64,000 bases of DNA from a virus (taxonomy: Duplodnaviria; Caudoviricetes), in the IMG/VR virus record IMGVR_UViG_2756170199_000003, positions 64,001 through 128,000 of that record. The stretch is one strand, 5' to 3'. The position numbers and the translations under genes are program-made. Below the pieces are notes generated by a model, which ran no database searches, was not told the DNA's origin, and saw only the letters and a program-made list of their open reading frames with translations. Positions 1 to 64,000 of this stretch are shown piece after piece. How positions within the stretch are numbered: the first letter of the stretch is position 1; the number at the start of each line of letters is the position of its first letter.

Positions 1-243
1 TACATCACAGCCGACGTGCCGGCGGGCGTGGGCGACAAGGGCGTGTTTGGCAACCAGCTCAAGACCGTGTTCGGTGAGGTGATGGAGCGCGACATGGTCA
101 CGGAATCGGGCGTGAAGATCGGTGCCGTGTTTGGCGCCAAGTCCGTGGCCGATCGGATCGTTTCCTCGCCCGAGCTCATTGGCACCACGTCCACATTGCT
201 CGAAGTCATCGCAACCGCCGCGGTCAGGCTCTACAAATCGTGA
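1..243 (+). CDS. Virion RNA polymerase beta-subunit C-terminal part (phiKZ gp149-like), 5' truncated by window
   Basis: GVGDKGVFGNQLKTV resembles the beta-subunit GDK...GxK catalytic-lysine motif of phiKZ-type split vRNAP; frame open from the window start. Confidence 0.75.
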   Translation, partial: YITADVPAGVGDKGVFGNQLKTVFGEVMERDMVTESGVKIGAVFGAKSVADRIVSSPELIGTTSTLLEVIATAAVRLYKS

Positions 244-262
244 TGCGCAGGAGGGACCCACC

Positions 263-451
263 ATGAAATCGCGGGAATCGGAAAAAACGCTTGTCACGCT
301 GGCCAACGCCACGACGCTCGTGCGCTGCATCGTGCAGGGTGTGGTGGGCAATGACCTGGCCGACACGTTTGCCGGCGCGCCGCTCACCAACGACGTCATC
401 GACCAGCTGGCCCAGGCGCGGTTCCAGCAGGCGGTGCAGCAATACCTGTAG
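263..451 (+). CDS. Small hypothetical jumbo-phage protein (62 aa)
   Basis: AGGAGG RBS before ATG263; sits between the vRNAP fragment and the next structural gene. Confidence 0.6.
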   Translation: MKSRESEKTLVTLANATTLVRCIVQGVVGNDLADTFAGAPLTNDVIDQLAQARFQQAVQQYL

Positions 452-467
452 CGGGAGGCGTTTTACC

Positions 468-1904
468 ATGCTCAGCGAAAGAACCCTGCTCGCCTCCATT
501 GCGCTCACCGAGCGGCTTGATGCGGCTGGCTTTGCACTCCACCCGGCCGCGGGTACGCCGCTCGACGCAATGTGTGCAGCGACCCACTTCGACACGGGTA
601 TTGCGCAAGTGCCCGATGGCAACTTCGGGACCCTGGCTAACCAGCTTGCCACTCGAACGGCACTGGTCGACCCGCTCATGGACTGCTCCGAGCACGACGC
701 GGTGCTCGATTCGATTGCGGACACGGCGATCGAGGCCGTCAAACGCCACGTTGCATTTGCGCGCTCCGTGGTCGCGCCGACCATCCAGAACCTGTATGAG
801 CGCGTCCACAGTTCCATCGAAGGCCTGAGCGTGTCTTCGCTGCTGGGTCTGGAGGTGGAAGTCTGGCGCGAACCCAAACCGGTGCTGAACACCGCATTGC
901 AGAGCGAACTGCACAAGCTCGAAGATGTCGCGCTTGATGACCCGCCCCTGTGGCTGCGCATGCCTGACATCGGCATTGCCGAGCTCATGGAACTGCTGAA
1001 GACAGGCAATGGCGGACTGGACGCTGACATTGCCGAGTGGGTCGCCGCCGAGGGCGACGCCTTCTTCATGTGCGTCTGGTGCGACTTCTTCCAGCAGCAC
1101 ATGCCCGAAGATGGCGAGCGCAACCGCACTTTCACGGAACGCGTCACCGATCGCATGACCGGCGTGCCTGTCGCACTTGCTGTCTATCTGCTCGCACGAC
1201 GCCTGCTCGACGAGAAGCCGCCAGAGGGTGTGGAAATGCCGCTTGCGAACTACCGGGCGCAGCTCGTGGAGTTTCGCAATCAGGCCGGCGGCGCACTCGT
1301 TCGCGCGCTCGATCGGATCGGCCGGGCCCTGAAAAACGGCCTGCTGGTGCGCGAGATCGCGGGTAGCAAAACCGTCGTCTATGAGCCCGTATATCGTGAG
1401 TATCTGGAAAAGGGTGGCAGCAACGAAATGCTGTTCGCCAACGCGCTCTCGCGGTCTTTCATGATGACGAGCTCCGACCTGCTCGAACAGAAGGAAGCGC
1501 TTGCAAGTCGCTGGGCCACTCACAGCGCGCTGATCGCTACTGCGGAATCCAACCAGCGCTACAACAAGACCATCGAACTGCTGGAGCTGCATTTCCGCGC
1601 GCAGCTTGATGAGGCGACCGAAGGCGAAGACACCACTGCGGCCAACCGCGACACGGTGCTCAGGCTCTTTCGTGATTGTCTCAAACACATCACGCAGAGC
1701 GATCTCAATGACCTGTACGCCGTGTGCCTGAAGCTCGTCTGCCGTGCACGGTTTTACACCACCGACGCCGAGCGCATTCTCACCGGCATGGAGCTCGCGA
1801 GGGCACGCAATCCGTCGCTCTCACCCCGCGAAGCCGCGACAGCCAGCATTGTCGATTACATCGCCTGGTGGGTCGCCTCACAAATGCGGCTGGCAAGCTG
1901 CTAA
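468..1904 (+). CDS. Putative virion structural protein (phiKZ-like)
   Basis: 478-aa ORF with GGAGG RBS, in an operon with the vRNAP subunit; resembles conserved jumbo-phage virion proteins from memory. Confidence 0.55.
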   Translation: MLSERTLLASIALTERLDAAGFALHPAAGTPLDAMCAATHFDTGIAQVPDGNFGTLANQLATRTALVDPLMDCSEHDAVLDSIADTAIEAVKRHVAFARSVVAPTIQNLYERVHSSIEGLSVSSLLGLEVEVWREPKPVLNTALQSELHKLEDVALDDPPLWLRMPDIGIAELMELLKTGNGGLDADIAEWVAAEGDAFFMCVWCDFFQQHMPEDGERNRTFTERVTDRMTGVPVALAVYLLARRLLDEKPPEGVEMPLANYRAQLVEFRNQAGGALVRALDRIGRALKNGLLVREIAGSKTVVYEPVYREYLEKGGSNEMLFANALSRSFMMTSSDLLEQKEALASRWATHSALIATAESNQRYNKTIELLELHFRAQLDEATEGEDTTAANRDTVLRLFRDCLKHITQSDLNDLYAVCLKLVCRARFYTTDAERILTGMELARARNPSLSPREAATASIVDYIAWWVASQMRLASC

Positions 1905-2363
1905 CGCACATCGGGTACTTCAGGCCAGACCTGCAGGCACGGCGGGGCACAAGCAGGCAAGCCAGCGCTACGGATCGCCCTGCGCATTACCGGTTCGCGC
2001 AAACCACGAAATAGCCAATCAGGAACGGCACGAAGAGTAGCGTGCCCACGACAAGTCCCTTGATCTGGGATGCGCGTTCATCATCTCTTTTGCCAACCTC
2101 GTTCGCCACAACAGGCTGGTCTGCCACGTGTGTTTCCGCGGCAGGCGCAAACGAGTACAGCGTGTGAACGCGATCAAGCATGCGGGAGTGATCAAGCAGC
2201 AGCGCAAGCGGACCCATGGCGGTTCTCCAACAGAGGAATATCGAGACAGAGAACAGAATAAATGCAAGGGCTCATCTTTGAGCCTGGACAAATCTGAAAC
2301 ACATTGCTGCGTGACATTCCGTCGCATTGCCGTCTTCAGATCGTGCCACTACCGGGAGATCAC

Positions 2364-3089
2364 ATGGACCCGAAGCATCTGGTGAGAGACCCCAACCGGG
2401 TGAAGGGCGCCCTCGCGGAAACGCCAGATGGCAAACTGGTCGCGAAGGCGCCCGTCAAGATCTATATCCCGACGCGCTTTGCCGAACGAGGTCTCGCCGA
2501 AGTCGGCATCGAGACGTTTATTTATGGCGTTTATGCCATCACTGTTGAAGACAGCTACTACGGCGTCTCTCTCGTGAACGCCATGATTCGCATCCAGCCG
2601 ACCTCGATGATGAAAGTGCTCGCGGGAGAGGACGAGTACTTTGAGTTCGAATTCGAGAAAGGTGCGGTTATCGCGCCATCGTTAAATCTCGTCAAGAATG
2701 ATGCACTCGTCTACCGGATATTCAACGAAATGCTCGCGGGTGCCCATGTGCCGTGGTACATCGGCTATAACGAGATGGCGTGTCTGCTCGACAGCGCCAA
2801 ATATCACGCCGGTGCCAATGTCGGACGGAACCACGACATCACCGAGCTGCTCGTCTCTGTCATTTCGAGAAACGCTGGCGACCGCCACGAGTTCTATCGA
2901 ACCGCGGTAAAGAGCCAGCATGATCTTCTCGCCAGTCCCCCCGTCTTCATTCCCCTTCGTTCCATCGAATTCGCTGCGACAAGCGCCCTGAACAAGATCG
3001 CAGGCAGCTACTTCAGCCGCGGCGTCGTCAGTGCGCTCATCAGCCCGAGCACGCGGGTTGAACGGCTGAACGACATTCTTGCGCGCTAA
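2364..3089 (+). CDS. Putative virion structural protein (phiKZ gp157-like)
   Basis: GGAG RBS; KIYIPxRF N-terminal motif recalled from jumbo-phage virion proteins; synteny. Confidence 0.5.
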   Translation: MDPKHLVRDPNRVKGALAETPDGKLVAKAPVKIYIPTRFAERGLAEVGIETFIYGVYAITVEDSYYGVSLVNAMIRIQPTSMMKVLAGEDEYFEFEFEKGAVIAPSLNLVKNDALVYRIFNEMLAGAHVPWYIGYNEMACLLDSAKYHAGANVGRNHDITELLVSVISRNAGDRHEFYRTAVKSQHDLLASPPVFIPLRSIEFAATSALNKIAGSYFSRGVVSALISPSTRVERLNDILAR

Positions 3090-3339
3090 CCACTCGGGCA
3101 GTTTATGTTTCATTGCGGGGCTGCTTCATTACCTCGTGTTACCTCAATATCCGCCATTCGGCTCGACGCACGTGAATACCTCAAGCAGCGCCGACGATTT
3201 GCACCCTTGCAGCACACATACGCTTTGCCGACGTTTGCTTACACATCGAAAAGGTTTTTCATCTCGTGACGCCTTACGCTTCATTCACGGCCTGAGTGCC
3301 GCGCTGCACGAAACAGAACAACACTTTGCGGGAAACAGA

Positions 3340-4074
3340 ATGAAGAACCTTTTCGCCCTCAACACACGCAACACTCGCCACCCGGTTGTATCGGGACTTG
3401 TATCCAGCGTGACGGCCGGCGCAGCATTGATCGCGGCTTGCCTCGCCGCACCGTTGCCCGCATCCGCACAGGTCATGGTTCTCGCCCCGCCGGCGGCACG
3501 CTATGAAACCGCACCGCCTCCGCGCGCCGGCTACGCATGGCAAGGTGGCTACTGGGGCTGGCAGCAGGGCCGTTACATGTGGACTCAGGGTCAGTGGATC
3601 AGCGCACCCCATGGGCGTCCCCTGCCGCCACCGCCGGCGCCCGTCTCGAATGTCATGAGACTGTCGGCCGATGCCCTGTTCCCGTTTGATCGCGGCAACG
3701 TCACCGATATCCTGCCAGGCGGGCGGGCTCAGATCCGCACGATTGCCGCGAAGCTGCGTGCAATGCCGTTTGGACGCATGGAGGTACGTGGCTATACGGA
3801 TCGCCTCGGCTCGCCCACGTATAACCTTGGGCTGTCCCAGCAGCGCGCCGACGCCGTCAAGATGCTGCTGATCCAGCAGGGTGTACCGGCCGATCGCATC
3901 ATCGCACGTGGAATGGGACCGCAGGATCCGATCACGCAGTGCTCGATCAATCAGCCTCAGGACAGGCTTGTGGCGTGCCTGCAGCCGGATCGCCGCGTCG
4001 AAATCGTCACGTTCGCCCGCACCGCAGAGCGCCCGATGCCGCCGATGGCCGCAAACCCGATGTACCGGCGGTAA
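3340..4074 (+). CDS. OmpA/Pal-family peptidoglycan-binding protein with signal peptide and YXWGXW-like repeat
   Basis: Ala-rich signal peptide; GYAWQGGYWGWQQGRYMW repeat; OmpA_C motifs LSADALFPFD, GYTDRLGSPTYNLGLSQQRADAV, CLQPDRRVEI. Confidence 0.9.
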   Translation: MKNLFALNTRNTRHPVVSGLVSSVTAGAALIAACLAAPLPASAQVMVLAPPAARYETAPPPRAGYAWQGGYWGWQQGRYMWTQGQWISAPHGRPLPPPPAPVSNVMRLSADALFPFDRGNVTDILPGGRAQIRTIAAKLRAMPFGRMEVRGYTDRLGSPTYNLGLSQQRADAVKMLLIQQGVPADRIIARGMGPQDPITQCSINQPQDRLVACLQPDRRVEIVTFARTAERPMPPMAANPMYRR

Positions 4075-4238: not shown

Positions 4239-4332
4239 TGGCGGAAACGGAGGGATTCGAACCCTCGATCCAGGTTTTGGCCCGGATGCTCCCTTAGCAG
4301 GGGAGTGCCTTCGACCTCTCGGCCACATTTCC
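4239..4332 (-). tRNA. tRNA-Ser(GCT)
   Basis: GGAAATG acceptor stem, CT-GCT-AA anticodon loop, long variable arm, GGTTCGAATCC T-arm, encoded CCA. Confidence 0.95.
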
Positions 4333-4334
4333 GG

Positions 4335-4408
4335 TGGAGCGGGTGAAGGCAATCGAACCCTCGTCGTAAGCTTGGAAGGCTTCTGCTCTACCATTGAGCT
4401 ACACCCGC
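4335..4408 (-). tRNA. tRNA-Gly(TCC), with a T-stem G53:G61 mismatch
   Basis: GCGGGTG acceptor stem, CT-TCC-AA anticodon loop, GGTTCGATT T-loop, encoded CCA. Confidence 0.9.
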
Positions 4409-4691: not shown

Positions 4692-5447
4692 ATGACCAAC
4701 TATGTGCGCTTCGGGCTCACGGCGCTGAACGGCATGAACAAGTCGGGCAGCCTCAAGCCCGACGCCAATGGCTACTACCCTGTGGTGCTGGGCGGGTTGA
4801 ACATGTACAACTCGGTCAACCAGTACTACCCGTACGAACCGGCCCGCGAGATATTCGAAAACTCCAGCCAGTTCATGCGCCGCGTTCAATCCGGCAACCT
4901 GCGTGGCGAATACGGCCATCCTAAACGCCTGCCCGGCCAGAACATCGAGGATTATGCACGGCGGATTCTCGATATCGACGTCAACAATGTCTCGCATCAC
5001 ATTGCCGAGATCCGGCTCGATTTCGAAAACTACAGGGATCCGGACGGCCGCGGCATCATCGCAATTCTTGGGCAGGTCAAACCCTCGGGGCCCCAGGGCG
5101 TGCACCTGAAAAACTCGCTCGACAACCCGCGCGAGAATGTCTGTTTCTCGATCCGCTCGTTCACGCTCGACGTGCCGGTCGGGCGCACTGTGCGGCGCGA
5201 GCTCAAGAACGTCGTGACGTGGGACTACGTCAACGAGCCAGGGCTTTTCATCGCGAGCAAGTTCAATTCGCCAGCACTTGAAGAAATCGACGAAACGATG
5301 TTCTCAAAGCTGCAACTCGACCGTGCCGTGGCGACAACCGGCAATCCCGCCATCGGACTGGAGTCAGCGAGGCTGACCCTCAATGAGCTCTACCAGTCGC
5401 TTGGATGGCTTGCTGAAACGGCCACTCCATCATGGCTTGCGTGGTGA
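4692..5447 (+). CDS. Prohead (head maturation) serine protease, phiKZ gp175-like (peptidase S80)
   Basis: Motifs GEYGHP, NVSHHI, CFSIRS, VTWDYVNEPG; C-terminal ALE and GLE putative autocleavage sites. Confidence 0.9.
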   Translation: MTNYVRFGLTALNGMNKSGSLKPDANGYYPVVLGGLNMYNSVNQYYPYEPAREIFENSSQFMRRVQSGNLRGEYGHPKRLPGQNIEDYARRILDIDVNNVSHHIAEIRLDFENYRDPDGRGIIAILGQVKPSGPQGVHLKNSLDNPRENVCFSIRSFTLDVPVGRTVRRELKNVVTWDYVNEPGLFIASKFNSPALEEIDETMFSKLQLDRAVATTGNPAIGLESARLTLNELYQSLGWLAETATPSWLAW

Positions 5448-6826: not shown

Positions 6827-7384
6827 ATGAGCGATGAGCCAGAAGAAACCTCCCTGACCAGCATCTGCCTCGTTCTCCTGCGCGAAGTCCGCATGGAACA
6901 AGGCTACCGTCAGGCCTACCTCGCCAGTTGGGTCGGCAGAACAACGGGTACGTGGACGAAAATCGAAGCTGGCACGAATCCGCTCCAGCTCGATGTCCTC
7001 TTCCACATCTGTACATGCATGCGGATCACACCGTCCCATGTGCTCGCCACAGCAGAACGCTACGCCGTCATTCTCAGTCAACACGGCTGGTCAATCCTGA
7101 CGTCGCATCTGCCTTCGAAAAAGGACAGTCTTCTACGTCTGGCCCAGCAGTACTGGACACTACCTGCGAGGTCGCGCGGATTGGCACCCCGACGTGGGTC
7201 CGTGCTGGACGGTCCGCTGTATGGCGGCAATCCGCACGAAGTCCCTCTGCCTGCCGTTTTCCAGTTCGCTCTTGATCCTGCGTATCGTGCTGCAACTCTT
7301 GACGGCGCCGCTGTTGCGCACCTCGACCCCGCTGGCCACATGCAGTTGCCCGGCAGACCACCGATGCAAGCCAGCGTAGCGTAA
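6827..7384 (+). CDS. XRE-family helix-turn-helix transcriptional regulator
   Basis: LREVRMEQGYRQAYLASWVGRTTGTWTKIEAG is an HTH_XRE signature. Confidence 0.8.
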   Translation: MSDEPEETSLTSICLVLLREVRMEQGYRQAYLASWVGRTTGTWTKIEAGTNPLQLDVLFHICTCMRITPSHVLATAERYAVILSQHGWSILTSHLPSKKDSLLRLAQQYWTLPARSRGLAPRRGSVLDGPLYGGNPHEVPLPAVFQFALDPAYRAATLDGAAVAHLDPAGHMQLPGRPPMQASVA

Positions 7385-7421
7385 CGATCTCCAGTTCGCT
7401 CCTTCCCGTGTTCGCACGGGT

Positions 7422-9882: not shown

Positions 9883-10857
9883 TCACGACGTGACCGCACT
9901 GCTCGGCGGCGTATTCACGGCAGCCAGCGCGGCGGCCGCAAGCGCTGCCGTCACGTCCTGACCTGTCGGCAATACCGAGGTCGGGCTCACCTGGTTCGCG
10001 GCGATCTGCGCGATCTCGTTCTGGTACCCGGTCGTGGTCGCCGCCACGTCTGCATTGATCGCGTTGATAAACGCGTTTTCCGTGTACGGATTGGCGTTCA
10101 CGATGCTGATCGCCGAAAGCACCTGCTGCGCGAACGCATCCACGCCCAGACTCCACTGCGCGATACCTGAGTAGGTGATGTCGACGGTCAGGTTTTCGAG
10201 CGCACTGGCCTGATCGCGCGAGCCCAGGATATCACCCGTACCGGTCGGGTACATGTTGGTCACCAGCCACGACTTCACGACTCTCGTGTGCGTCGGATCC
10301 GGCTCGATAAATAGCATTGTCGCCGAGTACATGTCCGCCAGCATGTCCGGCGGTGGACTCATTCCGGTGATGGCCGAGAGCGTCGCGACATTCGCGAACT
10401 TCGTGTCCGGGTCCATCATCAGGTTGGTGATCCACCCCTGATGGAACATCGACACAGGCATGCCATACTTCTCGTTCCACGAGAACTGCGGCTGCGAACG
10501 CTCTCGCTTCACATCGGTGAAATCCTGCTGCATGTTCCCGCCGCCACCAACCGGGGTCTCCGCCATTTCCACGGTAAGATGGGCGTTCAGCCCCGTGATG
10601 CGCAGCGCGTGCAGTTCCACCAGTGCGCGCAGCGTTCCGATCCACACATCGGGATTGGGCAGATAGCTGAAGCCCAGTGGCGCTTCCACGAGAATGCAGA
10701 TCAGGTTGCGCCGCACGTACTGCTGGTTGCTGACCCACTGCACGTAGTTCGGCACGAACCCCATCTGGCCACCATAGCGGGGGTCGAGCATCGGGTTGTT
10801 ATGCCCTTGGGCGAATCCGAACTGGTTCTGGAGTATGGCGTTTGCAACGCGGCCCAT
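9883..10857 (-). CDS. Tail tube protein (phiKZ gp30-like)
   Basis: GGQMG...WVSNQQYVRRNLICILVEAP, EKYG, MMDPDTK, MLFIEPDP motifs; directly downstream of the sheath gene. Confidence 0.85.
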   Translation of the reverse strand: MGRVANAILQNQFGFAQGHNNPMLDPRYGGQMGFVPNYVQWVSNQQYVRRNLICILVEAPLGFSYLPNPDVWIGTLRALVELHALRITGLNAHLTVEMAETPVGGGGNMQQDFTDVKRERSQPQFSWNEKYGMPVSMFHQGWITNLMMDPDTKFANVATLSAITGMSPPPDMLADMYSATMLFIEPDPTHTRVVKSWLVTNMYPTGTGDILGSRDQASALENLTVDITYSGIAQWSLGVDAFAQQVLSAISIVNANPYTENAFINAINADVAATTTGYQNEIAQIAANQVSPTSVLPTGQDVTAALAAAALAAVNTPPSSAVTS

Positions 10858-13035: not shown

Positions 13036-13177
13036 GGTTGCGATCCTGAAAGGAAATGCTATGGCCTGGGGGTAATCTGGAATGGCGATGCGGCGCATCA
13101 TATAAATTCGTCCGCTTCGCAATCCTCAATAACCTTCGACCACGTCATCACGAACTTTCAGGACGAGGCGGCGGAGA

Positions 13178-14122: not shown

Positions 14123-14177
14123 CCCGCCTGCGCCCGCCTCCCCCTTCACTTCTCCGTCTTTCCACCCGGGTTTGGCC

Positions 14178-16820: not shown

Positions 16821-16837
16821 TCGATGCCGGAGGTCGC

Positions 16838-23634: not shown

Positions 23635-23679
23635 CCGCGTATTTCTGAAAGCATTCCAGTAACCAAAGGTTCCGAGAAT

Positions 23680-24651: not shown

Positions 24652-24668
24652 CTGATCCAGACTCCGAA

Positions 24669-27787: not shown

Positions 27788-27850
27788 GGCCAATTCCTGA
27801 AATCCGATGAAAAGCCGCTGAGGAGCCGCCGGCAGCGTCCGGGTGCGGCT

Positions 27851-35131: not shown

Positions 35132-35145
35132 AAACGCGAGGCGTC

Positions 35146-36423: not shown

Positions 36424-36470
36424 TTTTACCTGCCGTGCTCATGCTGTGTCAGCCTGGATGGAGAGCAGAC

Positions 36471-40488: not shown

Positions 40489-40555
40489 CCACTTGTCATT
40501 AGCTAGGAATGCTAACGACCGTATACGTTATTCAACCTTGACGAAAGGAATTGCC

Positions 40556-42611: not shown

Positions 42612-42717
42612 CCGCGCAGGTATTTGAGCCTGTACGGCCTGTGCATAGGTTTTTATTGAACCGGGTAATCCAGTGCAGGTACCCCCTTCATGCGCACCAC
42701 CCGCACGGAGAAAGAAA

Positions 42718-49592: not shown

Positions 49593-49705
49593 CCGCTCTG
49601 GCACGCACGAGCCAGGAGGCACCTGTTGTACCAATCCAGTTTTTATTGGCCACGGCCATGTTGTGTCGCGAGTGGCGTGGCTATTCAACCGTAAAGGAAC
49701 CAACG

Positions 49706-50386: not shown

Positions 50387-50524
50387 GCGCTCCAGCTCAC
50401 TGTTCGTGATTCCGTTTCGACCCGGAGACATTTCCTTACGAACTGTACGCGAGGCAGCCAGACCTGGCTGCCCGCTTTCTTTCCCCAATGAAACGACACC
50501 AGGAATCCAAAGGAGATTGAGCGA

Positions 50525-50532
50525 TATATCAC
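50525..50532 (+). promoter_or_regulatory. TATATCAC putative phage early promoter
   Basis: GCGATATATCAC is identical to the copy at 29945-29956. Confidence 0.6.
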
Positions 50533-50569
50533 TGTCCTGCTGAATTGCCAGGCGCTTTTCTGGAGGGAC

Positions 50570-52150: not shown

Positions 52151-52153
52151 ACC

Positions 52154-53632: not shown

Positions 53633-53758
53633 CACGTTCACCAGGGACCCAACCACAGGCTCCATTTCCGGCTCGCACTACAAACCCGGGCACGGAGCCT
53701 GATTTACTGATATCCAGACTGAAGGAGCGGGACCACGCAAGCGGGCCCGATTCACTAC

Positions 53759-55042
53759 ATGACACCAACGCTCATTGACGTCTACAGGCAGTTACTGAAG
53801 ACAGCGAATCTGTCCGTCACGGCCGACAACATGATTTCCGGCACCCTCCTGGGTGAGACCGAGCCCGTGCTGGTCGAAGGCAAGCGGCTCGTACTGCCAA
53901 CGAATGAATTTCAGACCGCGGACAAGTCGGAGATCGTGCTGTTTCATCCGCTCGCAGAGCAGGTCACGCGAGGCAGCTCTCCCGTACTCGATAAATATCG
54001 TGCGCTGCTGGTTCATCACCTGGACATGATCGCAAGCCTTCAGATGAAGCATCTGTTGCGTATTGCCAGCTCACCCGAGCTGCACAAGGATCTGAGCCCC
54101 GACCAGTCCGAGTTCCTCTCGTTCGTCAAGGAAGCCGACGAAAAGACCATGGAGCTCCTCGAGAAAGTGCTGGACGTGATGGAAATGGGCCAGACCGCGC
54201 GCCAACCCGTTTCGATTTTCCTGAAGAAGACCGGAACGCTCGCCGGCAAGCGCCACAAGCGCGTGGGTGTCGTGAGCTTTCCGCTATGGCAGGAGTTGCA
54301 GAAACCCGAACAGGATATCTGGGGCGTCGCGTGCCGCAAGAAGGACAAGGAAACGCTCACCGCGCTGCTGGAGTTCATGTTCCCGCAAATCGGTGAACCC
54401 GAGGCATACAACCGCGGATCGGACTCGGGAATCGCGACGAATCTCCACGCGCTGATGCAGGCAGCACTTGCCGTCGTTGAGGCACTGAACGACATCACCC
54501 AGACGTTCGACATGCCCGAGAAGTTCCTGATCGACACCGACTGGCAGGAAACCTTCATGAACCTGAATCTGCTGCAGGCGGAAATCTGGCGTGTCCCGCC
54601 ACAGGCGGGCAACGAGGGGGTACCCTGGGACGAACCGCAGCCGGCGGCCAGTGCGACGTCGACGGCTGTGACCCGGATGGAGACACATCTGGAAAGCACG
54701 CGGCGCCCGTTCAACGACACGAAGGCGCGAGTGGCATCGCAACCTGCTGTGAATAGTGGCGTCAGCGGGCAATCGCGCCCGGAGGCTGGACTCGAGTACA
54801 CGAAGGACGGGCTCGATTTCAGCTCGGTAATACGCGCGAATCCGGCGCTCGCCAGCACGGGGGCTCCCCAGGTTCAGCCGGCTGCCCCACCGCAGACCTC
54901 GCAGTGGGCCCAACGCGCAATGGAGGCGCGCTCGCGCCCGCCGATGTTCCAGCGCGGCAACGAGAGCTGGTCAGGAGGCGGTAGCACCAGCGGCAGCATT
55001 TTCCCGGGCACGTCCGGCGGTGGGCGCCGGGGCCTGGTCTGA
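53759..55042 (+). CDS. Conserved jumbo-phage protein (phiKZ gp70-like) with disordered C-terminus
   Basis: GKRLVLPT, FHPLAE..RGSSPV, PPQAGNEG motifs; synteny. Confidence 0.65.
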   Translation: MTPTLIDVYRQLLKTANLSVTADNMISGTLLGETEPVLVEGKRLVLPTNEFQTADKSEIVLFHPLAEQVTRGSSPVLDKYRALLVHHLDMIASLQMKHLLRIASSPELHKDLSPDQSEFLSFVKEADEKTMELLEKVLDVMEMGQTARQPVSIFLKKTGTLAGKRHKRVGVVSFPLWQELQKPEQDIWGVACRKKDKETLTALLEFMFPQIGEPEAYNRGSDSGIATNLHALMQAALAVVEALNDITQTFDMPEKFLIDTDWQETFMNLNLLQAEIWRVPPQAGNEGVPWDEPQPAASATSTAVTRMETHLESTRRPFNDTKARVASQPAVNSGVSGQSRPEAGLEYTKDGLDFSSVIRANPALASTGAPQVQPAAPPQTSQWAQRAMEARSRPPMFQRGNESWSGGGSTSGSIFPGTSGGGRRGLV

Positions 55043-55933: not shown

Positions 55934-56022
55934 CCCTGTAGCACCCGAACGGGCACCGCACAGAAGCTTTTTTGTGCTGTGTTCCAGCGGGAGCGGTGGA
56001 GACGTTTTTTCAGGAAGACCCC

Positions 56023-58323
56023 ATGAACGATCTGAGTGAATCACATGCGATATCGGCAGCAGCAGATTTTGCGACCGGCGTATTGCGTGAAGAACCCAAC
56101 GAGCTCCACATGGAGCTGCTCAACATCCTGAGTCTGAATCCCTGGGACGGTAACGACAGTGCCGTGCGAAAGCAGATGTTTGCTTCTCACCTCGGCCAGA
56201 TGCTGACTTTCAAAGGTGCGACGGAGCGGTACTGCCAGACCGGCGCCGAACGCGAATTCGCGAAATACACGTTCTCAACGCGAGTTCCGGTTGACTGCCA
56301 GGTGATCCGGATCATCGATCGTTACCGGGTGACGCCCGGCGAAGATAGCGTGATCCGCAGTCGCCAGGACAATCCTCACACGCTGATCATCTACGAGGAC
56401 GTCAACACCAGTGAGATCGGCTGCATCAACATCCAGACCCATACCTCGTATCACAGTCACTTTGGATTCCGCAACGCAATCCGGCCCGTGCTCTCACATA
56501 TCCGGCCGGGCGACTATCTGGCAGCGGGCACGATCCTGACCGACTCGCCTTCGGTCACGGAAACCGGAGGATATAAATACGGGCGCGAATGCAATGTAGC
56601 GTTCATGACGATGCCACCGACGTCAGAGGACGGGCATCTGATCTGCTCGGATGTACTCAAAGAATTCACGTTCAACAGGTTCGAAAGTCGCGTAGTGGAA
56701 TTCGGCCACCGATATTTCCCGCTCAATACTTACGGCGATATCACCTGCTTCCAGGGCTTCCCCAACATCGGTGATTTCGTACGGCCCGACGGCCTGCTTA
56801 TGGCCTTGCGCTCTTACGACCGCGATCCGCAGAGCTACGATCGCGAGCTCGCCATCGTTGAACAGGGCGTTCATGACCTGATGGAGGTCGACCATGTCTT
56901 CGACCGGCTGATCTATGCGGGCGCGGGTGGCGGACGGGTCATCGACATCCGGGTGCATCACGACCGCCAGGCGAGTGTGTTCCCGACGCCTCGGGGCATG
57001 GAGCAGCAGGCGTCGCGCTATGACGACGCGCTTCACGAGTTCTACAGCGATATCGTCGGGGAATATAAACGCCTCGAGCGTGAGCGAGGCGCGGAATATC
57101 TGCGACTGACACCCGAGTTTCGCCGGCTGGTGCGCGAGGCGCTCGACGCCACGATGCAACCGAAAGAGCGCGTCTTCAAGCTCTATCGTAATGCGCCGAT
57201 TGACGACTGGCGAATCGAGTTCGTAATCGAGTACGAGGTCACGCCCACCATCGGATTCAAGATCACCGACACACATGGCGGCAAGGGCGTGATCTGCAAG
57301 ATCGCCCCTCCCGAAGCGATGCCCGTGGACCAGGACGGCAATCGCGCAGACATCGTGTTCGCACCGAATTCGATCGTCTCACGCGAGAATCCTGGCCGCG
57401 CCTACGAGCTCTTCATCAATGCGTATTCACGCGACGTCGTGAAGCAGATCTGCCAGTGGTTCGGACTGGAACCTCGCGAGCGGAACCCACTGCCCAGAAT
57501 CCGCGAGATCGAATCGACGAATCCCGCCCTCTTCCAGCAGGCACTGGACCATCTCGTCGGCTACTACGCCATCGTGGTACCGAACATGGCGAAATGGTTC
57601 GCACCCGATCCAACCCTTGCGGCCGACAAGCGGTACACGAGACCGATGGCCGAACATCTGGCCAGCATCATCGCGGCCGGCATGCTCACGCTGCATTACC
57701 CGCCCGATAATCCGCGACCAGCCGCAGACATCGTGAGACTTCTGCGGAAGAACTATCACTCGACCTATGGACCTGTCAGCTACATCGGGCACAACGGCGA
57801 GCGACGGGTAACGAAGGCGCCGGTGCGCATTGGAAGCATGAACATCATCCTGCTTGAGAAGACTGCGGACGACTGGACAGCCGTCTCCTCCGGCAAGACA
57901 CAACATTTCGGAGTCCTGTCACCGGTTACCAACGTCGACAAATACGCCCTGCCGTGGCGACCCCAATCGATCCGTGCGTTTGGCGAGGCGGAGATGCGAC
58001 TCGTCGCGGCGTATTGCGGTCAGCGAGCGGTCGCCGAGATAGTCGATCGCAACAACAGCCGCGAGACGCACCGGGAAATTCTCGATGCGATCCTGCGTGC
58101 GGAGAAGCCTTCCGATATCGAGTGCGCGGTTGACCGCTCGCGCGTGCCCTACGGCAACAACCGGCCGTTACAGCTGGTGAAGCATCTGCTTGCATGCATG
58201 GGCATGGAGTTCGAGTACACGCCCTACGAGCCCGACTGGTCGAGCCCCGGATCGCAGCAACCCGATCCCGGCGGGCAGAAAGTCGGCCCTCCCCCAACTG
58301 CCGAACTGGAGGTTGCACCATGA
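56023..58323 (+). CDS. Non-virion RNA polymerase beta C-terminal subunit (phiKZ gp71/73-like, uninterrupted)
   Basis: RKQMFASH..Q, SEDG, GFKITDTHGGKGVI, ADIV..PNS..SRENPG, RAFGEAEMR. Confidence 0.92.
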   Translation: MNDLSESHAISAAADFATGVLREEPNELHMELLNILSLNPWDGNDSAVRKQMFASHLGQMLTFKGATERYCQTGAEREFAKYTFSTRVPVDCQVIRIIDRYRVTPGEDSVIRSRQDNPHTLIIYEDVNTSEIGCINIQTHTSYHSHFGFRNAIRPVLSHIRPGDYLAAGTILTDSPSVTETGGYKYGRECNVAFMTMPPTSEDGHLICSDVLKEFTFNRFESRVVEFGHRYFPLNTYGDITCFQGFPNIGDFVRPDGLLMALRSYDRDPQSYDRELAIVEQGVHDLMEVDHVFDRLIYAGAGGGRVIDIRVHHDRQASVFPTPRGMEQQASRYDDALHEFYSDIVGEYKRLERERGAEYLRLTPEFRRLVREALDATMQPKERVFKLYRNAPIDDWRIEFVIEYEVTPTIGFKITDTHGGKGVICKIAPPEAMPVDQDGNRADIVFAPNSIVSRENPGRAYELFINAYSRDVVKQICQWFGLEPRERNPLPRIREIESTNPALFQQALDHLVGYYAIVVPNMAKWFAPDPTLAADKRYTRPMAEHLASIIAAGMLTLHYPPDNPRPAADIVRLLRKNYHSTYGPVSYIGHNGERRVTKAPVRIGSMNIILLEKTADDWTAVSSGKTQHFGVLSPVTNVDKYALPWRPQSIRAFGEAEMRLVAAYCGQRAVAEIVDRNNSRETHREILDAILRAEKPSDIECAVDRSRVPYGNNRPLQLVKHLLACMGMEFEYTPYEPDWSSPGSQQPDPGGQKVGPPPTAELEVAP

Positions 58324-60317
58324 GACGCTTCGCTGCCAGGACGCTGCTGGGCCACAGCACTGAGGCGCTGTGGGGCATGCTTTACGGGCCCTTCCGGCTG
58401 GTCTTTGACGACGGTGAGCTTGAGGTGGATCACCGCTCGACGCTGTACAGCAGCTATGGCTGGGATCTCCTCAGGGAATATCCCGCGGCACCCATGCTCA
58501 TGCGGCATCACGTGACGCATGTCCTGAATGGTCGACGCCTGAACACCGACACACACCTGAAGCTGCTGGCCAACGTCGACTGGGACGTGCTCGACGCTTA
58601 CGGAGAGCACGGTCAGCGCGATCCCTCCGTGACGATCGACCGGATCGGCCGCCGGACCTGTGAGATCGTCAACGCGATGTACAACGATCTGTCCGTACGC
58701 CTGGAGGAGTACGTCGTCTCGTTCGATATCACGGACTTTGTTGATGTGGTCGATCATCCACCGATCGTCAAGGCAAAGAGGGCTATCTACGCGGTGCCGC
58801 TCGACAAGGTCACAGACCGCATGCTCGACGAAGCGTATGCGGATGTGGGCAGGATCATCCGCGAAGATCCTGCGCTCGATCGCAATCCCATTGTGATCGG
58901 GGCGCGCTCGAACACGGTGCGCTTCGAGCAGTTGCTCGAGTGCGTGGCGTTTCGCGGCAAGATCACGGACATCGATTCGAACCAGTTCGAGTTGCCGATC
59001 CTGCCGAGCTACACCGAAGGCATCCGCGGTTTTCGTGATTCGCTCATCGAATCGCGCTCGGCGGCCAAGGCACTCTTCTTTGCGTCCGCGCCGCTGCAGG
59101 ATGCCGAGTACTTCTCCAGACGCCAACAGCTCATGGCGATGAATATCCAGCGTCTTCATCATGGTGACTGCGGCACTACGGAGTTCACGCACTGGATGGT
59201 GCGCAAGGAGGACCTGCGGCTGCTCGCCGGGATGAACCGGCTCGATGAAGAGTCAGGCGAACTGCTGTGCATCAGCAAGCAGGACACGCATCTGGTCGGC
59301 AAAACGATCCGGTTGCGTACCGTACTGCATTGTGCGCATCCCGATCCGGCGGGAGTGTGTTCAACCTGTGTGGGTGAGCTTGCCCGATCGGTTCCCGATG
59401 GTACGAATATCGGGCACCAGTTCTGCATGGTGCTGTTTGGCCAGTCCACGCAGCTGGTGATCTCCATCAAGCACCTGGACAAGTCCGCATCTATCGAACC
59501 TGCCGTGCTCCTTGAAGCCGACAGGCTGTTCCTCAAACTTGGATCCGACGCCAATTCGTATCTGCTCGCCGATCGTCTGAAGGGAAAGAACATCAGACTC
59601 ATCATTCCAGCGGAGGCCATACCGAACATCAACGACATTTTCGAAATCGACGATGTCGAGAACCTGAACATCGCACGCTTCTCCAGCATCGGGCGCATCA
59701 GCATCCTCGTGGGTACCTCGGACGAGGCGACCGGGCCTGACATTCCGACCCGTGCCGGTCAGCGCATCGCGTCCATGACCCATGAACTGATGCGGCACAT
59801 CAGGAAGGTGGGCTGGACGAATGACGGGAAAGGCAATCACGTCATCGACATGCATGGCTGGAATGCGTCGCATCCCATTCTTGCCTTGCCCTTCAAGCAC
59901 TTCAACATGTCCGATCATTCGAAAGACATTGCGAAACTGCTTGAGTCAAGCGTTGGCATGATGCAGGCACGGGACAAGGATACGCGGCCGGACGACGCGC
60001 TCGTCGAACTCTTCGACCTCGTCAACAGCAAGCTCGATGTGAGCCTGGCCATCCTTGCCATTGTGCTCAAGCAGGCCATGATTGTCTCGGCGGAGAACCG
60101 CGACTACAGCTTGCCCAAGCCAGGGATGACCGCCGGGCTGGGTGTGATGTCGCAGTCGATGAAACACCGCTCTCTTTCTGCTGCGATGGCGTTTGAACAC
60201 CACCGCGAAGTGCTGACGGACCCGGTCAGCTTCCTGCACAAGCGGCGTATGGATCACCCGTTCGACGTGTTCCTCATGCCACGCGAAATCCTCCAGCCCG
60301 AGACGTTGTCCACCTGA
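58320..60317 (+). CDS. Non-virion RNA polymerase beta' C-terminal subunit (phiKZ gp74-like)
   Basis: ESRSAAKAL, EYFSRR, HGDCGT, Zn cysteines C...GVCSTCVG, QLVISIKH, RSLSAAMAFE, HPFD. Confidence 0.9.
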   Translation: MRRFAARTLLGHSTEALWGMLYGPFRLVFDDGELEVDHRSTLYSSYGWDLLREYPAAPMLMRHHVTHVLNGRRLNTDTHLKLLANVDWDVLDAYGEHGQRDPSVTIDRIGRRTCEIVNAMYNDLSVRLEEYVVSFDITDFVDVVDHPPIVKAKRAIYAVPLDKVTDRMLDEAYADVGRIIREDPALDRNPIVIGARSNTVRFEQLLECVAFRGKITDIDSNQFELPILPSYTEGIRGFRDSLIESRSAAKALFFASAPLQDAEYFSRRQQLMAMNIQRLHHGDCGTTEFTHWMVRKEDLRLLAGMNRLDEESGELLCISKQDTHLVGKTIRLRTVLHCAHPDPAGVCSTCVGELARSVPDGTNIGHQFCMVLFGQSTQLVISIKHLDKSASIEPAVLLEADRLFLKLGSDANSYLLADRLKGKNIRLIIPAEAIPNINDIFEIDDVENLNIARFSSIGRISILVGTSDEATGPDIPTRAGQRIASMTHELMRHIRKVGWTNDGKGNHVIDMHGWNASHPILALPFKHFNMSDHSKDIAKLLESSVGMMQARDKDTRPDDALVELFDLVNSKLDVSLAILAIVLKQAMIVSAENRDYSLPKPGMTAGLGVMSQSMKHRSLSAAMAFEHHREVLTDPVSFLHKRRMDHPFDVFLMPREILQPETLST

Positions 60318-60410
60318 GCGCCAGTGGCAAGGAGCGGCAACCAGAAAATACCTCCCCAGGGCATCTGTTGGCAGACAGATGCCCTCCTTTTCTTCATCGA
60401 GATTTTTGTC

Positions 60411-61958
60411 ATGGCGGAGTTACGCATATCGACACGATCGCATCATTTCGTGGTCGACCAGATGTCGCCCCAGGGCAGGCAGGCCACGGAGAGATTCGCA
60501 AGGCAGTTCATCCACTATGGTCGCCGGCAACGCGCCCAACGCTATAACAGGTACAGCGCCCGCAACGCCCGCTCCGTCAGCGAGTACTCTGCGTGGCGCG
60601 AGGACCGCCGCGAGTGTCGCTTCCATATCAACGTGCTCGAGCGCTTCGAGCAACACCTCAAGGACTACGGACTCGATCATGAATCTCTGGTGGAGCGGGT
60701 CGCAGAAGTTCCACCTCCTGCATGCAGGATCGCGCTCCTGATTCGCGAAGGCTGGTCGCTGCGTGACTACCAGGAGCCGGCTGTCAATTACGTCACTGCG
60801 GATGCGGGCTCACGATCACGGTTTCTGGGTCTGCAGACTGGCAAGGGCAAGGGGATCACTGCGCTTTTCGCAATCAGGGATCTCGCAGTGAGGACGCTCG
60901 CCTTCCTGCAACCGAAGTACATCGAAAAATGGGTGATGGACATCCGCGAGATCTGTCAGGTCGAACTCGAAGACGTGATGGTCGTGCGCGGCGTTCAGCA
61001 TCTCAAGGCACTCCTCACGATGGCCGGTTCTGGCAGTCTGCACAGCCCGATCGTGATCATCAGCAGCAAGACCATGCAGCGCTGGATCAACGTCTACGAG
61101 CAATATGGCGAGGAGACGCTCAAGATGGGCTACGCCTGCCTGCCTGATCAACTGATGGGTTGGCTTGGGGTGGGCTTGCGGCTGATCGATGAAGTGCACC
61201 AGCATTTTGCGATGCAGTTCCGTCTGGATCTCTATACGCACTGCGAACGTTCGTTGTCGCTTTCTGCAACGCTGCTGCACACCGACGGCTTCCTGAACCG
61301 CATGTACGAAGTCGCGTATCCGGACGCGACGCGTTACAACGGGCCGGCCTATGACCGGTATGTTCGCGCCACTGCCCTCTTCTACCGGTTCAGGCACCCA
61401 CGACATATCCGCTTTCTCGATCCCCTGAGCCACAGCTATTCGCATTATCGCTTCGAAATGAGCGTAATGAAGGATCCGGCCGTGCTGGACAGCTATCTGG
61501 ATCTGATCGACAGCATTGTGAAGTCGAAGTATGAGCTCACTTATCGGCCCGGAGAAAAGCTCGTGATCTTCTTCGGCTCTGTAGCGATGTGTACGCGCGC
61601 GACAGCGTTCTTTCGCGCGCGCTATCCGGGCCGGGATGTACGGCGTTATGTTGAGGAGGATCCGTTCGCGAATGCGATGGAGCCCGACATGGTCATTACG
61701 ACCTTACAGTCGTACGGCGCCGCATTTCATCCGAAGGAGCTATCCACCGTCATTCTGACGGTCGCTGTGAACAGCCTCCAGGCCAATCTGCAGGTCCTCG
61801 GACGGCTGCTTCCACTTTCGGCTGGGAAGACTCCGGAATTCATCTATCTGGTCTGCATGGATATCGCACAGCACCGGATCTATCACGAGAGCAAGGTCGA
61901 GCTCTTCCGGCAGCGCGCATTGCACTGCGAAACGCAGTACGTGCATGCGCCGATATGA
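60411..61958 (+). CDS. SF2 DExH helicase (phiKZ gp75-like)
   Basis: LRDYQ, LQTGKGKG, IDEVH, LSATL, QVLGRL. Confidence 0.9.
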   Translation: MAELRISTRSHHFVVDQMSPQGRQATERFARQFIHYGRRQRAQRYNRYSARNARSVSEYSAWREDRRECRFHINVLERFEQHLKDYGLDHESLVERVAEVPPPACRIALLIREGWSLRDYQEPAVNYVTADAGSRSRFLGLQTGKGKGITALFAIRDLAVRTLAFLQPKYIEKWVMDIREICQVELEDVMVVRGVQHLKALLTMAGSGSLHSPIVIISSKTMQRWINVYEQYGEETLKMGYACLPDQLMGWLGVGLRLIDEVHQHFAMQFRLDLYTHCERSLSLSATLLHTDGFLNRMYEVAYPDATRYNGPAYDRYVRATALFYRFRHPRHIRFLDPLSHSYSHYRFEMSVMKDPAVLDSYLDLIDSIVKSKYELTYRPGEKLVIFFGSVAMCTRATAFFRARYPGRDVRRYVEEDPFANAMEPDMVITTLQSYGAAFHPKELSTVILTVAVNSLQANLQVLGRLLPLSAGKTPEFIYLVCMDIAQHRIYHESKVELFRQRALHCETQYVHAPI

Positions 61959-62100
61959 ACGGCATGCCCCCGTATGTGTGAAGGCATCCGTTTTAATTAG
62001 TAATCCGAACTTAATTGAAACTGGATGTGAACACATATCACGACACCGGAGCACGCCGTGGGGCCGTGCCTTCACTTATTTACCCAGGAGGGAGATGATC

Positions 62101-62661
62101 ATGCTTACGCTCGTACGCGATGCTGTGCTGGAGCGTCCGGCTGAAAAGCCGGAGTTCGGCAAAAGTGTAGCCGTGCTGGAGCAGTTTGGCTTTTACGACT
62201 ACGCAACGATCGGGGTAGCAGACGCCCGTCTGCACTTCACCGTCGGAATGACCGAGGTGAACCTGCCGGAATTTTTCGTAACCGGGAACGTGTCAGATGG
62301 ATATGCCGGGGATCTGTTTGCGGCCGTCAGCAAGGAATTCCTGACGACGAAGGGACGTACCGCGCTTGGGATCCGCGGTGACCTGATGCCCTTCCCTGTC
62401 GAGTTGCGCCTGATTGCAACGCCTCTGGAGCGGCGGCTGCCGGCCGAAGGGGGCAGCTATGCGGATATGATGAGGTGGCTCGATTGGCACTGGCCAGGGC
62501 GGGTCTGCATGGTGCAGATCATCTGGCCCGACGACAGCGGCCGGTTGCCAGACGAAACAGGGTTTGATGCCACCTGCTGTCGCCAGACCGTTCATCCACG
62601 ACTGCCGTTTATCGGTGGCACGGTCTCCGATGCGTGCGCACTCCAGGGAGGCAATGCATGA
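62101..62661 (+). CDS. DUF4262-like protein
   Basis: HFTVGMTEVNLPEFFVTG and VQIIWPDDSGRLP motifs. Confidence 0.7.
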   Translation: MLTLVRDAVLERPAEKPEFGKSVAVLEQFGFYDYATIGVADARLHFTVGMTEVNLPEFFVTGNVSDGYAGDLFAAVSKEFLTTKGRTALGIRGDLMPFPVELRLIATPLERRLPAEGGSYADMMRWLDWHWPGRVCMVQIIWPDDSGRLPDETGFDATCCRQTVHPRLPFIGGTVSDACALQGGNA

Positions 62662-63260
62662 GTGCACTCGATACGCTGTACCGCAATCGCGACCGGAATC
62701 AGGTGGAGTTTGACCGCTTCGAAGGCCAACTGTTGGAGCTTATCAGGAGGTCCCGTGAGAGCGGCCCATTGCCCGCGGCCATTCGTGAGTTGCGCGATGT
62801 TGCCTCATTGAAAGCTGGCGATGACGAGGCCCGTTGCGTCGCGGTACATCAATGCCAGAGGCTGCTGTGGTGGCTTGCCAAACCAGCCTGGCAAGTCGAC
62901 GAGGCGTGTGGACTGGTCTACGGGGTCGATCCCGCTGCGGAGAGAGATGGTGCCGCACAGGCTGGCTGTTATGCACTTGACGGACGGCTGCTGACCGCCG
63001 ATTCGTCAGAGGCGTATCACGCGTGGCTTCTGCTCGAGTCGCTCTATCTCCACATGGAAAACCGGATCGAGCAAGCCATCACCGTTTCCGATCTTTCCTG
63101 CGAAATCAGTCCGGCTGATTTCATCAACTGGTGCCACGATGAGGGCGTCGACACAAGCTACCTCCGGTTGATCCGCACACTTGTTGGTCTTGGCGAAAAC
63201 CGGCTTGTGGGACGGCTACCACTTGCTGACGTGCAGATCTTCGTCTCAGGCAGGCAATGA
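62658..63260 (+). CDS. Hypothetical protein
   Basis: GGAGG RBS and ATGA overlap; W..KPAW...EACGL..GVDP and PADFINWC motifs typical of mobile-element proteins. Confidence 0.6.
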   Translation: MSALDTLYRNRDRNQVEFDRFEGQLLELIRRSRESGPLPAAIRELRDVASLKAGDDEARCVAVHQCQRLLWWLAKPAWQVDEACGLVYGVDPAAERDGAAQAGCYALDGRLLTADSSEAYHAWLLLESLYLHMENRIEQAITVSDLSCEISPADFINWCHDEGVDTSYLRLIRTLVGLGENRLVGRLPLADVQIFVSGRQ

Positions 63261-64000
63261 CGAAGCCTGCCGCAGGGTCGGCCCTTGCACGCGATGGGAC
63301 TGGGGCACTCCCGGTCCCATCTCTTCCTTCTCATTTTTTTTGTCTTTCCGGCCAGGCTTGACCAGATCCAGGATCCCCTCGACGTAGGCACGGGTAGTCG
63401 CCGTCACGGGCCTTTTGGCTTCGGTTTTCGTGATCGGGGCGACCGAAGCCGCGGGCGTAACTTCACGCAGGCGGCCAGAGGCCAGCGCTGCGGCAAACCC
63501 CACCTGCCAGTTCGGCACCTGACGCGCAACTGCTTCCTCGGCGTTGTAGACGGACAGGCATTCGCCCGACGTATCCACGGTGTGAGTATTCCCGTCCGTA
63601 TCCTCGAACGATTTCCCGGCGTTCTGCCTTGCGATAGCGCGTGCCTGTACGACGCGTTGCTTGCGTGCCTGGTCTTCGGCGCGAGTTTCGTTGCGCTGGC
63701 GCAGCTGATGCGAGAAATCGACCGGGTTGTTCAGCAGGGAGCCGAGATAGCAGATCGGACGCTTGGCGAGCTTCAGGTGTTGCCACGTGACTTCGACGAC
63801 ATCGGAGAGACGCTTACCGGCCTCACGTGCCTGACGCATGAGTTTAAAGATCAGGAAATCAGAAAAACCCAGGGTGCGAAGGCGCTGAAGATCCGACGGC
63901 ACCTCGCCCGGTTGTCTCTTTTGAAAAGAAGCAGGGGAAAGATCCTTATATATACCACCGTGTGCCACCGTGGCAGACGGTGTATTTGCTTCTTCTGGGG
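63246..64000 (-). CDS. Plasmid replication protein ('replication protein O'-like of Burkholderiales plasmids), 5' part outside window
   Basis: Frame open to the window edge; SATVAHGGIYKDL.PASFQKRQPG..P.DLQRL..LGF..FLIFKLMR.AR..GKRLSDVVE...P..YL..LL..PVDF is recognised from memory as this family. Confidence 0.65.
   Translation of the reverse strand, partial: PEEANTPSATVAHGGIYKDLSPASFQKRQPGEVPSDLQRLRTLGFSDFLIFKLMRQAREAGKRLSDVVEVTWQHLKLAKRPICYLGSLLNNPVDFSHQLRQRNETRAEDQARKQRVVQARAIARQNAGKSFEDTDGNTHTVDTSGECLSVYNAEEAVARQVPNWQVGFAAALASGRLREVTPAASVAPITKTEAKRPVTATTRAYVEGILDLVKPGRKDKKNEKEEMGPGVPQSHRVQGPTLRQASSLPA
63293..63342 (+). terminator. Intrinsic terminator (+ strand)
   Basis: GATGGGAC...GTCCCATC stem followed by a pyrimidine/T tract. 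Confidence 0.55.

Follow-up and report, generated by a model that had tools for sequence, protein, structure and literature searches.

Can a nucleus-forming jumbo phage also be carried by its host as a plasmid? Chimalliviruses, the phiKZ-like phages that encode chimallin (ChmA), are regarded as strictly lytic, which helps to make them attractive for phage therapy and cell-biology work. The question is raised by a 64,000-nt stretch of DNA (the window), bases 64001-128000 of one 138,880-bp contig held in IMG/VR as record IMGVR_UViG_2756170199_000003, in which an earlier note had seen phage-nucleus and virion genes on one molecule with a plasmid-type replication gene. We conclude with high confidence that the window comes from the middle of a Chimalliviridae genome (phiKZ-like, nucleus-forming) of ~275-285 kb, with a Paraburkholderia-type host and a phage-plasmid architecture. 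Judging from gene content and conservation, this phage-plasmid clade is probably carried stably as a low-copy episome with an inducible nucleus-forming cycle.

The phage side of this architecture was established with Pfam and a tblastn comparison of all contig open reading frames (ORFs) with phiKZ, which together place ~50 phiKZ homologues on the contig in a phiKZ-like order. The nucleus block reported earlier (chmA, subunits of the non-virion RNA polymerase (nvRNAP), chmC, picA, DNA polymerase and helicase) is intact by both methods. ChmA itself (40493..42565, plus strand, as are the genes that follow unless noted) carries PF25677 at 36.9 bits against a cut-off of 27, as do 29 of 29 ChmA homologues; it is 24% identical to phiKZ gp54 (tblastn E 1.5e-10), and the synteny gp52-gp54-gp55 is kept. 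Its true start is probably ~21 codons downstream of the annotated one. Upstream lie SH3DP (gp49; 35119..35553; Pfam and tblastn), the divergent family B DNA polymerase divDNApol/gp50 (36291..38669; 744 bits) and, on the minus strand, a gp52 homologue (39038..40159; tblastn). Downstream are the nvRNAP beta-prime N-terminal subunit gp55 (42673..44223; RNA_pol_Rpb1_2, tblastn E 4e-72), then homologues of gp59 and gp62 (tblastn) and, at 47353..55042, of gp65, gp66, gp67, gp68, gp69 and gp70 (tblastn). Among the latter, gp67 (49487..50386) is known in the literature on phiKZ as ChmC/Imp6, gp68 (50570..52150) is an nvRNAP subunit, and gp69 (52154..53632) is Imp1, the PicA counterpart. The nvRNAP beta subunit corresponding to gp71-73 (55972..58323; Rpb2_6, tblastn), the beta-prime C-terminal subunit gp74 (58194..60317; tblastn, Pfam) and a gp75-like helicase (60324..61958; tblastn E 1.5e-56, weak ResIII match) follow. 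Four of the five nvRNAP subunits are thus on the contig, and a homologue of gp123 was found by tblastn on a syntenic contig of P. adhaesiva, described below. By gene content, the genome appears to be of the nucleus-forming type.

The virion genes named earlier, protease, sheath, tube and terminase, are likewise confirmed in the window by Pfam and tblastn. The prohead protease is a gp175 homologue (4692..5447, plus; Peptidase_S80, 250 bits). On the minus strand are the tail tube, gp30 (9883..10857; Phage_TTP_14, 368 bits), and the tail sheath, gp29 (10930..13122; PF20961, 149 bits). On the plus strand they are followed by homologues of the vertex protein gp28 (13178..14122), gp27 (DUF7193; 14172..16820) and gp26 (16817..18544), and by the large terminase TerL, a gp25 homologue (18644..20905; 40% identity to phiKZ). 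By TerL, the closest isolated phages are Burkholderia phage FLC9 (56% identity) and Ralstonia phages RP12, RP31 and FLC1-1B (52%), the matches to RP12 and RP31 being annotated 'terminase large subunit'. The window also encodes a gp176-like head protein (2304..3089, plus; 38% identity, E 7e-55) and homologues of gp32 and gp42 (DUF7484) with one gene between them (26558..30010, minus; Pfam and tblastn). The virion RNA polymerase (vRNAP) had been reported as a fragment. The gene is indeed present, but it is not a genomic fragment: a full-length, 1499-aa gp178 homologue (tblastn 41% identity, E=0) starts 4.3 kb before the window and is clipped by its edge, leaving the last 243 nt inside (1..243, plus). 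Homologues of gp149 and gp180, two further vRNAP genes, are also on the contig, and gp80 was found by tblastn solely in the P. adhaesiva relative. Upstream of the window, the contig also carries the portal (gp129) and homologues of gp128, gp131, gp164/165, gp152, gp155 and gp181.

The plasmid side begins where the helicase ends. A DUF4262 protein and a 208-aa protein (61945..63260, plus), whose homologues occupy the same interval, from helicase to Rep, in most of the relatives compared, are followed on the minus strand by the C-terminal 251 codons of a plasmid-type Rep (63246..64000), a 415-aa ORF that continues 493 nt past the window. The plasmid-type match reported earlier is not spurious: by tblastn, Rep matches 117 Burkholderiaceae plasmid and chromid records at 50-58% identity, often under the label 'Replication protein O' and in some cases at record position 1, and has zero matches in 50,697 phage records. 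We infer a role in replication from this context, namely its occurrence in plasmids, next to parAB at the start of the record. An AlphaFold2 (AF2) model of Rep (pLDDT 68.6) contains an N-terminal winged helix and a confident second domain of unrecognised kin. Assignment to a particular initiator family was considered and rejected; the model gave just MarR-like winged-helix matches (E ~0.04), which is no evidence for one.

Directly behind Rep, just outside the window, are ParB and then ParA, so that a complete parA-parB-rep unit of the host family's plasmid type adjoins the window. ParA (400-413 aa, type Ia, with an N-terminal extension) matches AAA_31 at 133 bits; its match to the NCBIfam model partition_RepA, at 214 bits, does not reach the equivalog cut-off. 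The matches of ParB to ParB_N and to a helix-turn-helix (HTH) domain are weak. Caballeronia/Burkholderia chromids have a ParA of 67% identity at position ~1, and the order parA-parB-rep is that of Burkholderiaceae replicons (e.g. AP014579). The best phage matches to ParA include those of the N15-like phage-plasmids PY54 and phiKO2, at ~30% identity. In FLC9 and RP12, the closest lytic isolates, the helicase is present and ParA was not found. The 250-bp spacer between parB and rep, upstream of rep, contains a conserved 15-bp palindrome that occurs a single time in the contig, as well as a 13-mer present twice at a spacing of 65 bp and a 10-mer present twice, both seen by eye.

Is this junction real? 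Single-protein scans for related loci in genome and viral contigs found nothing. ChmA homologues led to a Joint Genome Institute (JGI) contig of 275,198 bp (ChmA 92% identical), to P. adhaesiva JAJEJQ010000005.1 (hereafter C5; 284,264 bp, 55%), to Paraburkholderia sp. HC6.4b (282,688 bp, 49%) and to Caballeronia arationis (143,740 bp, 36%). ParA-ParB-Rep also lies beside helicase and nvRNAP genes in Paraburkholderia sp. BCC1886 (286,074 bp) and in a JGI contig of 278,988 bp. In all, five further contigs of 275-286 kb, three of them from isolate genomes and two from JGI samples, keep the order nvRNAP, helicase, Rep, ParB, ParA. The isolate assemblies are GCA_021390575.1 for P. adhaesiva, GCA_014200875.1 for HC6.4b and GCA_900996245.1 for BCC1886. 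The Rep homologues of the JGI 275-kb contig (85% identity) and of HC6.4b (76%) are ~20 genes away from ChmA. The C. arationis phage contig stops just before the expected Rep, and its link to a small rep-parB-parA contig is unproven. With C5, the whole 138,880-bp contig is collinear (C5 49.7-188.6 kb) across the junction and beyond, through helicase, DUF4262, the 208-aa gene, Rep, ParB, ParA, three small genes and SRAP. Because six independent assemblies share it, the junction is no assembly artefact, and phage core and plasmid-type replication gene do belong to one molecule, as the earlier note had supposed. Portal homologues of at least 90% identity are also found in the assemblies of Paraburkholderia sp. 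GAS448 and P. aspalathi, and in all, relatives are present in at least six named Paraburkholderia/Caballeronia isolate assemblies.

The record itself is less complete. It has a GC content of 59.7% and no terminal overlap, and since IMG/VR classes it as 'provirus' and CheckV puts its completeness at 52%, it is an excised piece of a larger contig. As to its source replicon, it is a 'provirus' fragment from a virus collection and not a named plasmid; the label 'jumbo' is borne out by the relatives of 275-286 kb, not by the size of the 139-kb record. Trimming of the provirus probably stopped at the portal because a host-like block of type VI secretion system (T6SS) and other cargo genes flanks it in relatives. 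From their near-equal lengths and circular permutation, the 275-286-kb contigs look like whole replicons. In the JGI 275-kb contig, with the portal at 94.6-97.7 kb (plus) and ChmA at 260.1-262.1 kb (minus), a phiKZ-like order is reached only by crossing the record ends, where the 138,880-bp contig aligns continuously. C5, closed as a circle, has 68 kb of cargo between gp124 and gp129/128, where phiKZ has three small genes, and so regains the phiKZ order from gp124 to gp128/129 around the cargo. By this comparison of gene orders, at least these two contigs are circular permutations of one gene order. A full inventory of chimallivirus genes, made for one relative only, C5, supplies those missing here: gp120 (258.7-260.5 kb), gp123, gp80, gp77, gp82-91, gp118, gp203 and PhuZ. 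C5 thus has the full lytic set of capsid, portal, tail, terminase, vRNAP, nvRNAP, ChmA, Imp1 and ChmC.

Both halves of the element are under purifying selection. Against P. adhaesiva, the ratio of nonsynonymous to synonymous substitution (dN/dS) spans 0.015-0.13 across virion genes (tube 0.015, portal 0.045, sheath 0.058, TerL 0.07, vRNAP subunits 0.04-0.10), and among the plasmid genes it is 0.03 in ParA, 0.09 in ParB and 0.26 in Rep; ChmA, compared with the JGI relative, gives 0.155. These low values in phage and plasmid genes indicate that both functions are kept. The plasmid genes nevertheless have a history of their own. The parB-parA segment (genome 128459-131144) is 90.7% identical in nucleotides to P. 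adhaesiva, where the phage core reaches 74% and rep 68%, and dS is 0.26 for ParA against ~0.9-1.0 for core genes. This mosaic of identities implies recent exchange or homogenisation of the partition genes between divergent phages. In a deep-branching relative the helicase is 47% identical and ParA still 90.5%. ParAB of BCC1886 is of another type (46% and 45% identity); at least three ParAB types occupy the fixed locus, and in the Rep tree the Reps of these contigs branch at three or more points among ordinary plasmid Reps. Of the four members of the ParA cluster at 90% identity, three come from contigs of 275-284 kb that also carry ChmA, and the fourth is from an unplaced JGI contig of 3.4 kb. 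Swapping of maintenance alleles at a fixed locus is typical of plasmids and phage-plasmids under incompatibility pressure, and such swapping of Rep and ParAB here is hard to reconcile with an idle module.

The cargo points in the same direction. The host-benefit cargo of the earlier note is borne out by Pfam searches, which find behind TerL VgrG (21127..23634; Phage_GPD 183, T6SS_Vgr 109 and DUF2345 142 bits), a VRR-NUC-like effector (23680..24651; VRR_NUC 22.7 bits, narrowly short of the 23.8-bit cut-off) and TsiV immunity (24669..25688; 152 bits), all on the plus strand. Within this islet (21127..25688) the GC fraction dips to 0.53, and P. adhaesiva does not have it at this site. It is a lineage-specific insertion with the TseV/TsiV type of VgrG-effector-immunity layout. 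In two relatives, C5 and the JGI 275-kb contig, T6SS cluster genes adjoin the portal gene, so the islet may feed a T6SS encoded by the element and need not be an orphan. Between 20 and 48 kb, C5 encodes TssA, TssC, TssF, TssG, TssK, TssM, VgrG, ClpV and an OmpA-domain protein, and the JGI contig (L045:14853-23102) encodes ClpV, Hcp, DotU, an OmpA-domain protein, TssB and TssC. The 1-50 kb region of C5 also holds transporters, an aldehyde dehydrogenase and an operon of enolase-like and GMC oxidoreductase genes with a porin and IclR, and its 269-284 kb region holds DeoR, PdxA, KdgT, LysR, an amidohydrolase, a major facilitator superfamily (MFS) transporter, a porin and a methyltransferase. That T6SS and catabolic genes make sense only during residence in a host suggests that the element spends time there.

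How could such a genome stay quiet? Early genes of chimalliviruses depend on vRNAP injected from the virion. A resident copy would lack this enzyme, and latency might therefore need no repressor. After entry, the genome would be kept as a low-copy episome, replicated by the host replisome from a Rep-dependent origin and segregated by ParABS. The lytic programme would remain off, largely since the early promoters need the packaged polymerase, and carriage would be paid for by cargo such as the T6SS. Some trigger would then have to let host RNA polymerase express vRNAP or nvRNAP and so start the nucleus-forming cycle. A candidate for the early promoters is present in the window: the 8-mer TATATCAC occurs seven times, always on the plus strand (5531, 19832, 29949, 40481, 45009, 50525 and 55926), against 0.33 expected. 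Among the genes that have a site directly upstream are chmA and two nvRNAP subunit genes, the gp68 and gp71-73 homologues; this fits an early (vRNAP) promoter element, and presumably the 8-mer resembles the AT-rich early promoter element of phiKZ. The most specific form of the proposal is that the Paraburkholderia/Caballeronia clade of nucleus-forming phages consists of low-copy ~280-kb plasmids with chromid-type Rep and ParABS, which arm the host with their own T6SS and are latent for want of virion RNA polymerase; we regard this form as quite possible, and put it forward tentatively.

Several observations weigh against a plasmid lifestyle. The 52%-complete record is without the major capsid protein gp120, gp123 and gp80 by tblastn against phiKZ, so that the earlier call for a core-gene inventory is answered by the contig for the portal and most vRNAP and nvRNAP genes but for gp120, gp123 and gp80 only by C5; the gp77-99 head proteins and PhuZ were also not found on the 138,880-bp contig. 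Rep has no relative in Pfam, NCBIfam or the PDB, and solely its N-terminal winged helix is recognisable. A repeat search did not find a clear iteron array, and the palindrome and short repeats upstream of rep are candidates for parS and for iterons or operators. No lysis-lysogeny repressor was found. The sole candidate is the XRE regulator of the earlier note, a 185-aa protein (6827..7384, plus) that comes close to the HTH_31 cut-off (26.1 bits against 27) but remains below it, reaches merely 12.6 bits with HTH_3, and is not conserved, lying in a variable stretch missing in the P. adhaesiva relative. The HTH_3 profile returned zero XRE genes above threshold on the contig, and an H-NS gene was not found there. 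Finally, virulent chimalliviruses persist in isolate cultures and appear in isolate assemblies (Dougherty et al., bioRxiv 10.1101/2024.12.31.630880), so that presence in such assemblies alone proves nothing.

This last point leads to the main rival of a phage-plasmid lifestyle, an obligately lytic chimallivirus in a carrier state or persistent infection, whose par and rep genes serve that cycle (genome positioning, extra replication) and not plasmid lysogeny. Such an explanation would account for the failure to find a switch based on a repressor or integrase, and headful, circularly permuted phage DNA would likewise assemble as a circle. We consider it unlikely, though it is the alternative that survives best. 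The persistent phages of that study lack cognate ParA and Rep (10.1101/2024.12.31.630880), whereas the clade described here has a complete plasmid module of the host family's type, under purifying selection and with the allele swapping typical of escape from incompatibility. Moreover, 68 kb of regulated catabolic and T6SS cargo would be useless in a short lytic cycle.

A plasmid that is no longer a phage seems more doubtful still. Here a megaplasmid would have captured a chimallivirus and be domesticating it, with no infectious virions and with phage genes repurposed or decaying. The large cargo, the insertion sequence (IS) elements and recombinase trio inserted in relatives, the apparently truncated helicase of one metagenomic relative and the visibility of half of the gene set on this record would all agree with decay. 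Yet the ~50 phiKZ homologues of the contig are without exception full-length, capsid, portal, terminase and every vRNAP and nvRNAP subunit are on the P. adhaesiva contig, the virion genes are under the strong constraint given above, and the total sizes of 275-286 kb are as a headful limit predicts.

The earlier note had left a choice between a phage-plasmid and a prophage integrated in a plasmid. The former fits better, because the plasmid-like DNA sits among phage genes at two distinct sites, and the latter less so. Integration in a chromosome or larger replicon, or an assembly chimera of phage and plasmid, is very improbable despite the 'provirus' class and a tyrosine recombinase gene 8 kb beyond the window, and both the chimera and the simple integrated prophage were rejected: the junction is shared by six independent assemblies, phage genes lie on both sides of the plasmid-like DNA, the relatives are stand-alone, circularly permuted contigs, the recombinase belongs to a 4.4-kb insertion absent from P. 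adhaesiva, and the block of T6SS and cargo genes is the simplest account of the 'host' flanks that led to the provirus class.

Placed among known systems, the element shares ChmA, a split nvRNAP and vRNAP, Imp1 and ChmC with the Chimalliviridae (phiKZ, PhiPA3, 201phi2-1 and Goslar, with FLC9, RP12, RP31 and FLC1-1B as nearest isolates), as well as the divergent family B DNA polymerase and a gp25-30 virion block in phiKZ order. Relative to those isolates, this clade adds parA-parB-rep, T6SS genes and catabolic cargo, and occurs as stand-alone contigs in isolate genomes. Like phage-plasmids (the P1, N15/PY54/phiKO2 and SSU5 groups), it has virion genes, a replication initiator and ParAB on one replicon, with plasmid modules swapped around a conserved phage backbone. 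It differs from them in a genome ~3 times larger, in a lytic cycle predicted to use its own RNA polymerases and a protein nucleus, in that a C1/CB-type repressor was not identified, in par and rep of Burkholderiaceae chromid/megaplasmid type, and in the T6SS genes of its relatives. Burkholderiaceae chromids and megaplasmids have the same parA-parB-rep order, with ParA at 67% and Rep at 50-58% identity, and T6SS and catabolic cargo are typical there; here, in contrast, an intact jumbo-phage genome makes up three quarters of the replicon. The Goslar-like and Seoul-like persistent virulent jumbo phages of Dougherty et al. also encode chimallin and form separate contigs in isolate assemblies, but when screened were without cognate ParA or replication proteins, whereas the present clade has conserved the module in full, and under selection.

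Full-text literature searches returned no report of a temperate or plasmid-like chimallivirus, and temperate, lysogenic or phage-plasmid Chimalliviridae go unmentioned in reviews from 2025 and 2026. If the most specific form of the proposal is true, these would be the first temperate Chimalliviridae, with a mechanism of latency that does without a classical repressor. A lineage with plasmid maintenance genes raises the question of how a genome dependent on an injected polymerase and a protein nucleus is silenced and then woken. Would resident phage DNA, outside the nucleus, be exposed to host defences, and can large adaptive cargo, a complete T6SS for instance, travel on jumbo phages? Since public collections hold the strains, the idea is open to direct testing.

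Other features of the window and contig can be noted. In the window, an OmpA-domain (peptidoglycan-binding) protein is encoded at 3079..4074 (plus; PF00691 62 bits, with NCBIfam OmpA-type matches under their cut-offs), and ARAGORN predicts tRNA-Ser(GCT) and tRNA-Gly(TCC) at 4239..4408 (minus). A 171-aa gene on the minus strand (35908..36423), supported by orthologues, overlaps the DNA polymerase ORF at its annotated 5' end; a SET methyltransferase domain was detected on its orthologues in two relatives. Record position 1 is the ATG of a 191-aa secreted protein (1-576) whose Cys/His motifs resemble an NlpC/P60-type cell-wall hydrolase; this stretch is without a counterpart in the JGI 275-kb relative. 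Three neighbouring gp133-135-like paralogues (634, 469 and 504 aa; fibre) lie upstream of the window at record 12770-17680. At the contig end, beside the par region, is a gene for an SRAP/YedK-type SOS-response peptidase (154 bits; L001:17972-18880) with 86% nucleotide identity to P. adhaesiva.

Small mobile elements also appear to ride on these genomes. The 4.4-kb insertion (genome 133.2-137.6 kb) encodes the tyrosine recombinase (459 aa) and a 743-aa protein without a family match, and P. adhaesiva instead has a tyrosine recombinase trio inserted at 57.7-60.1 kb. In a metagenomic relative from the European Nucleotide Archive (ENA; 150,849 bp), IS66, IS240 and a recombinase trio separate a helicase remnant from DUF4262-Rep-ParB-ParA, and an addiction pair, ParE/PaaA2, is nearby; this relative may be a decaying member of the clade.

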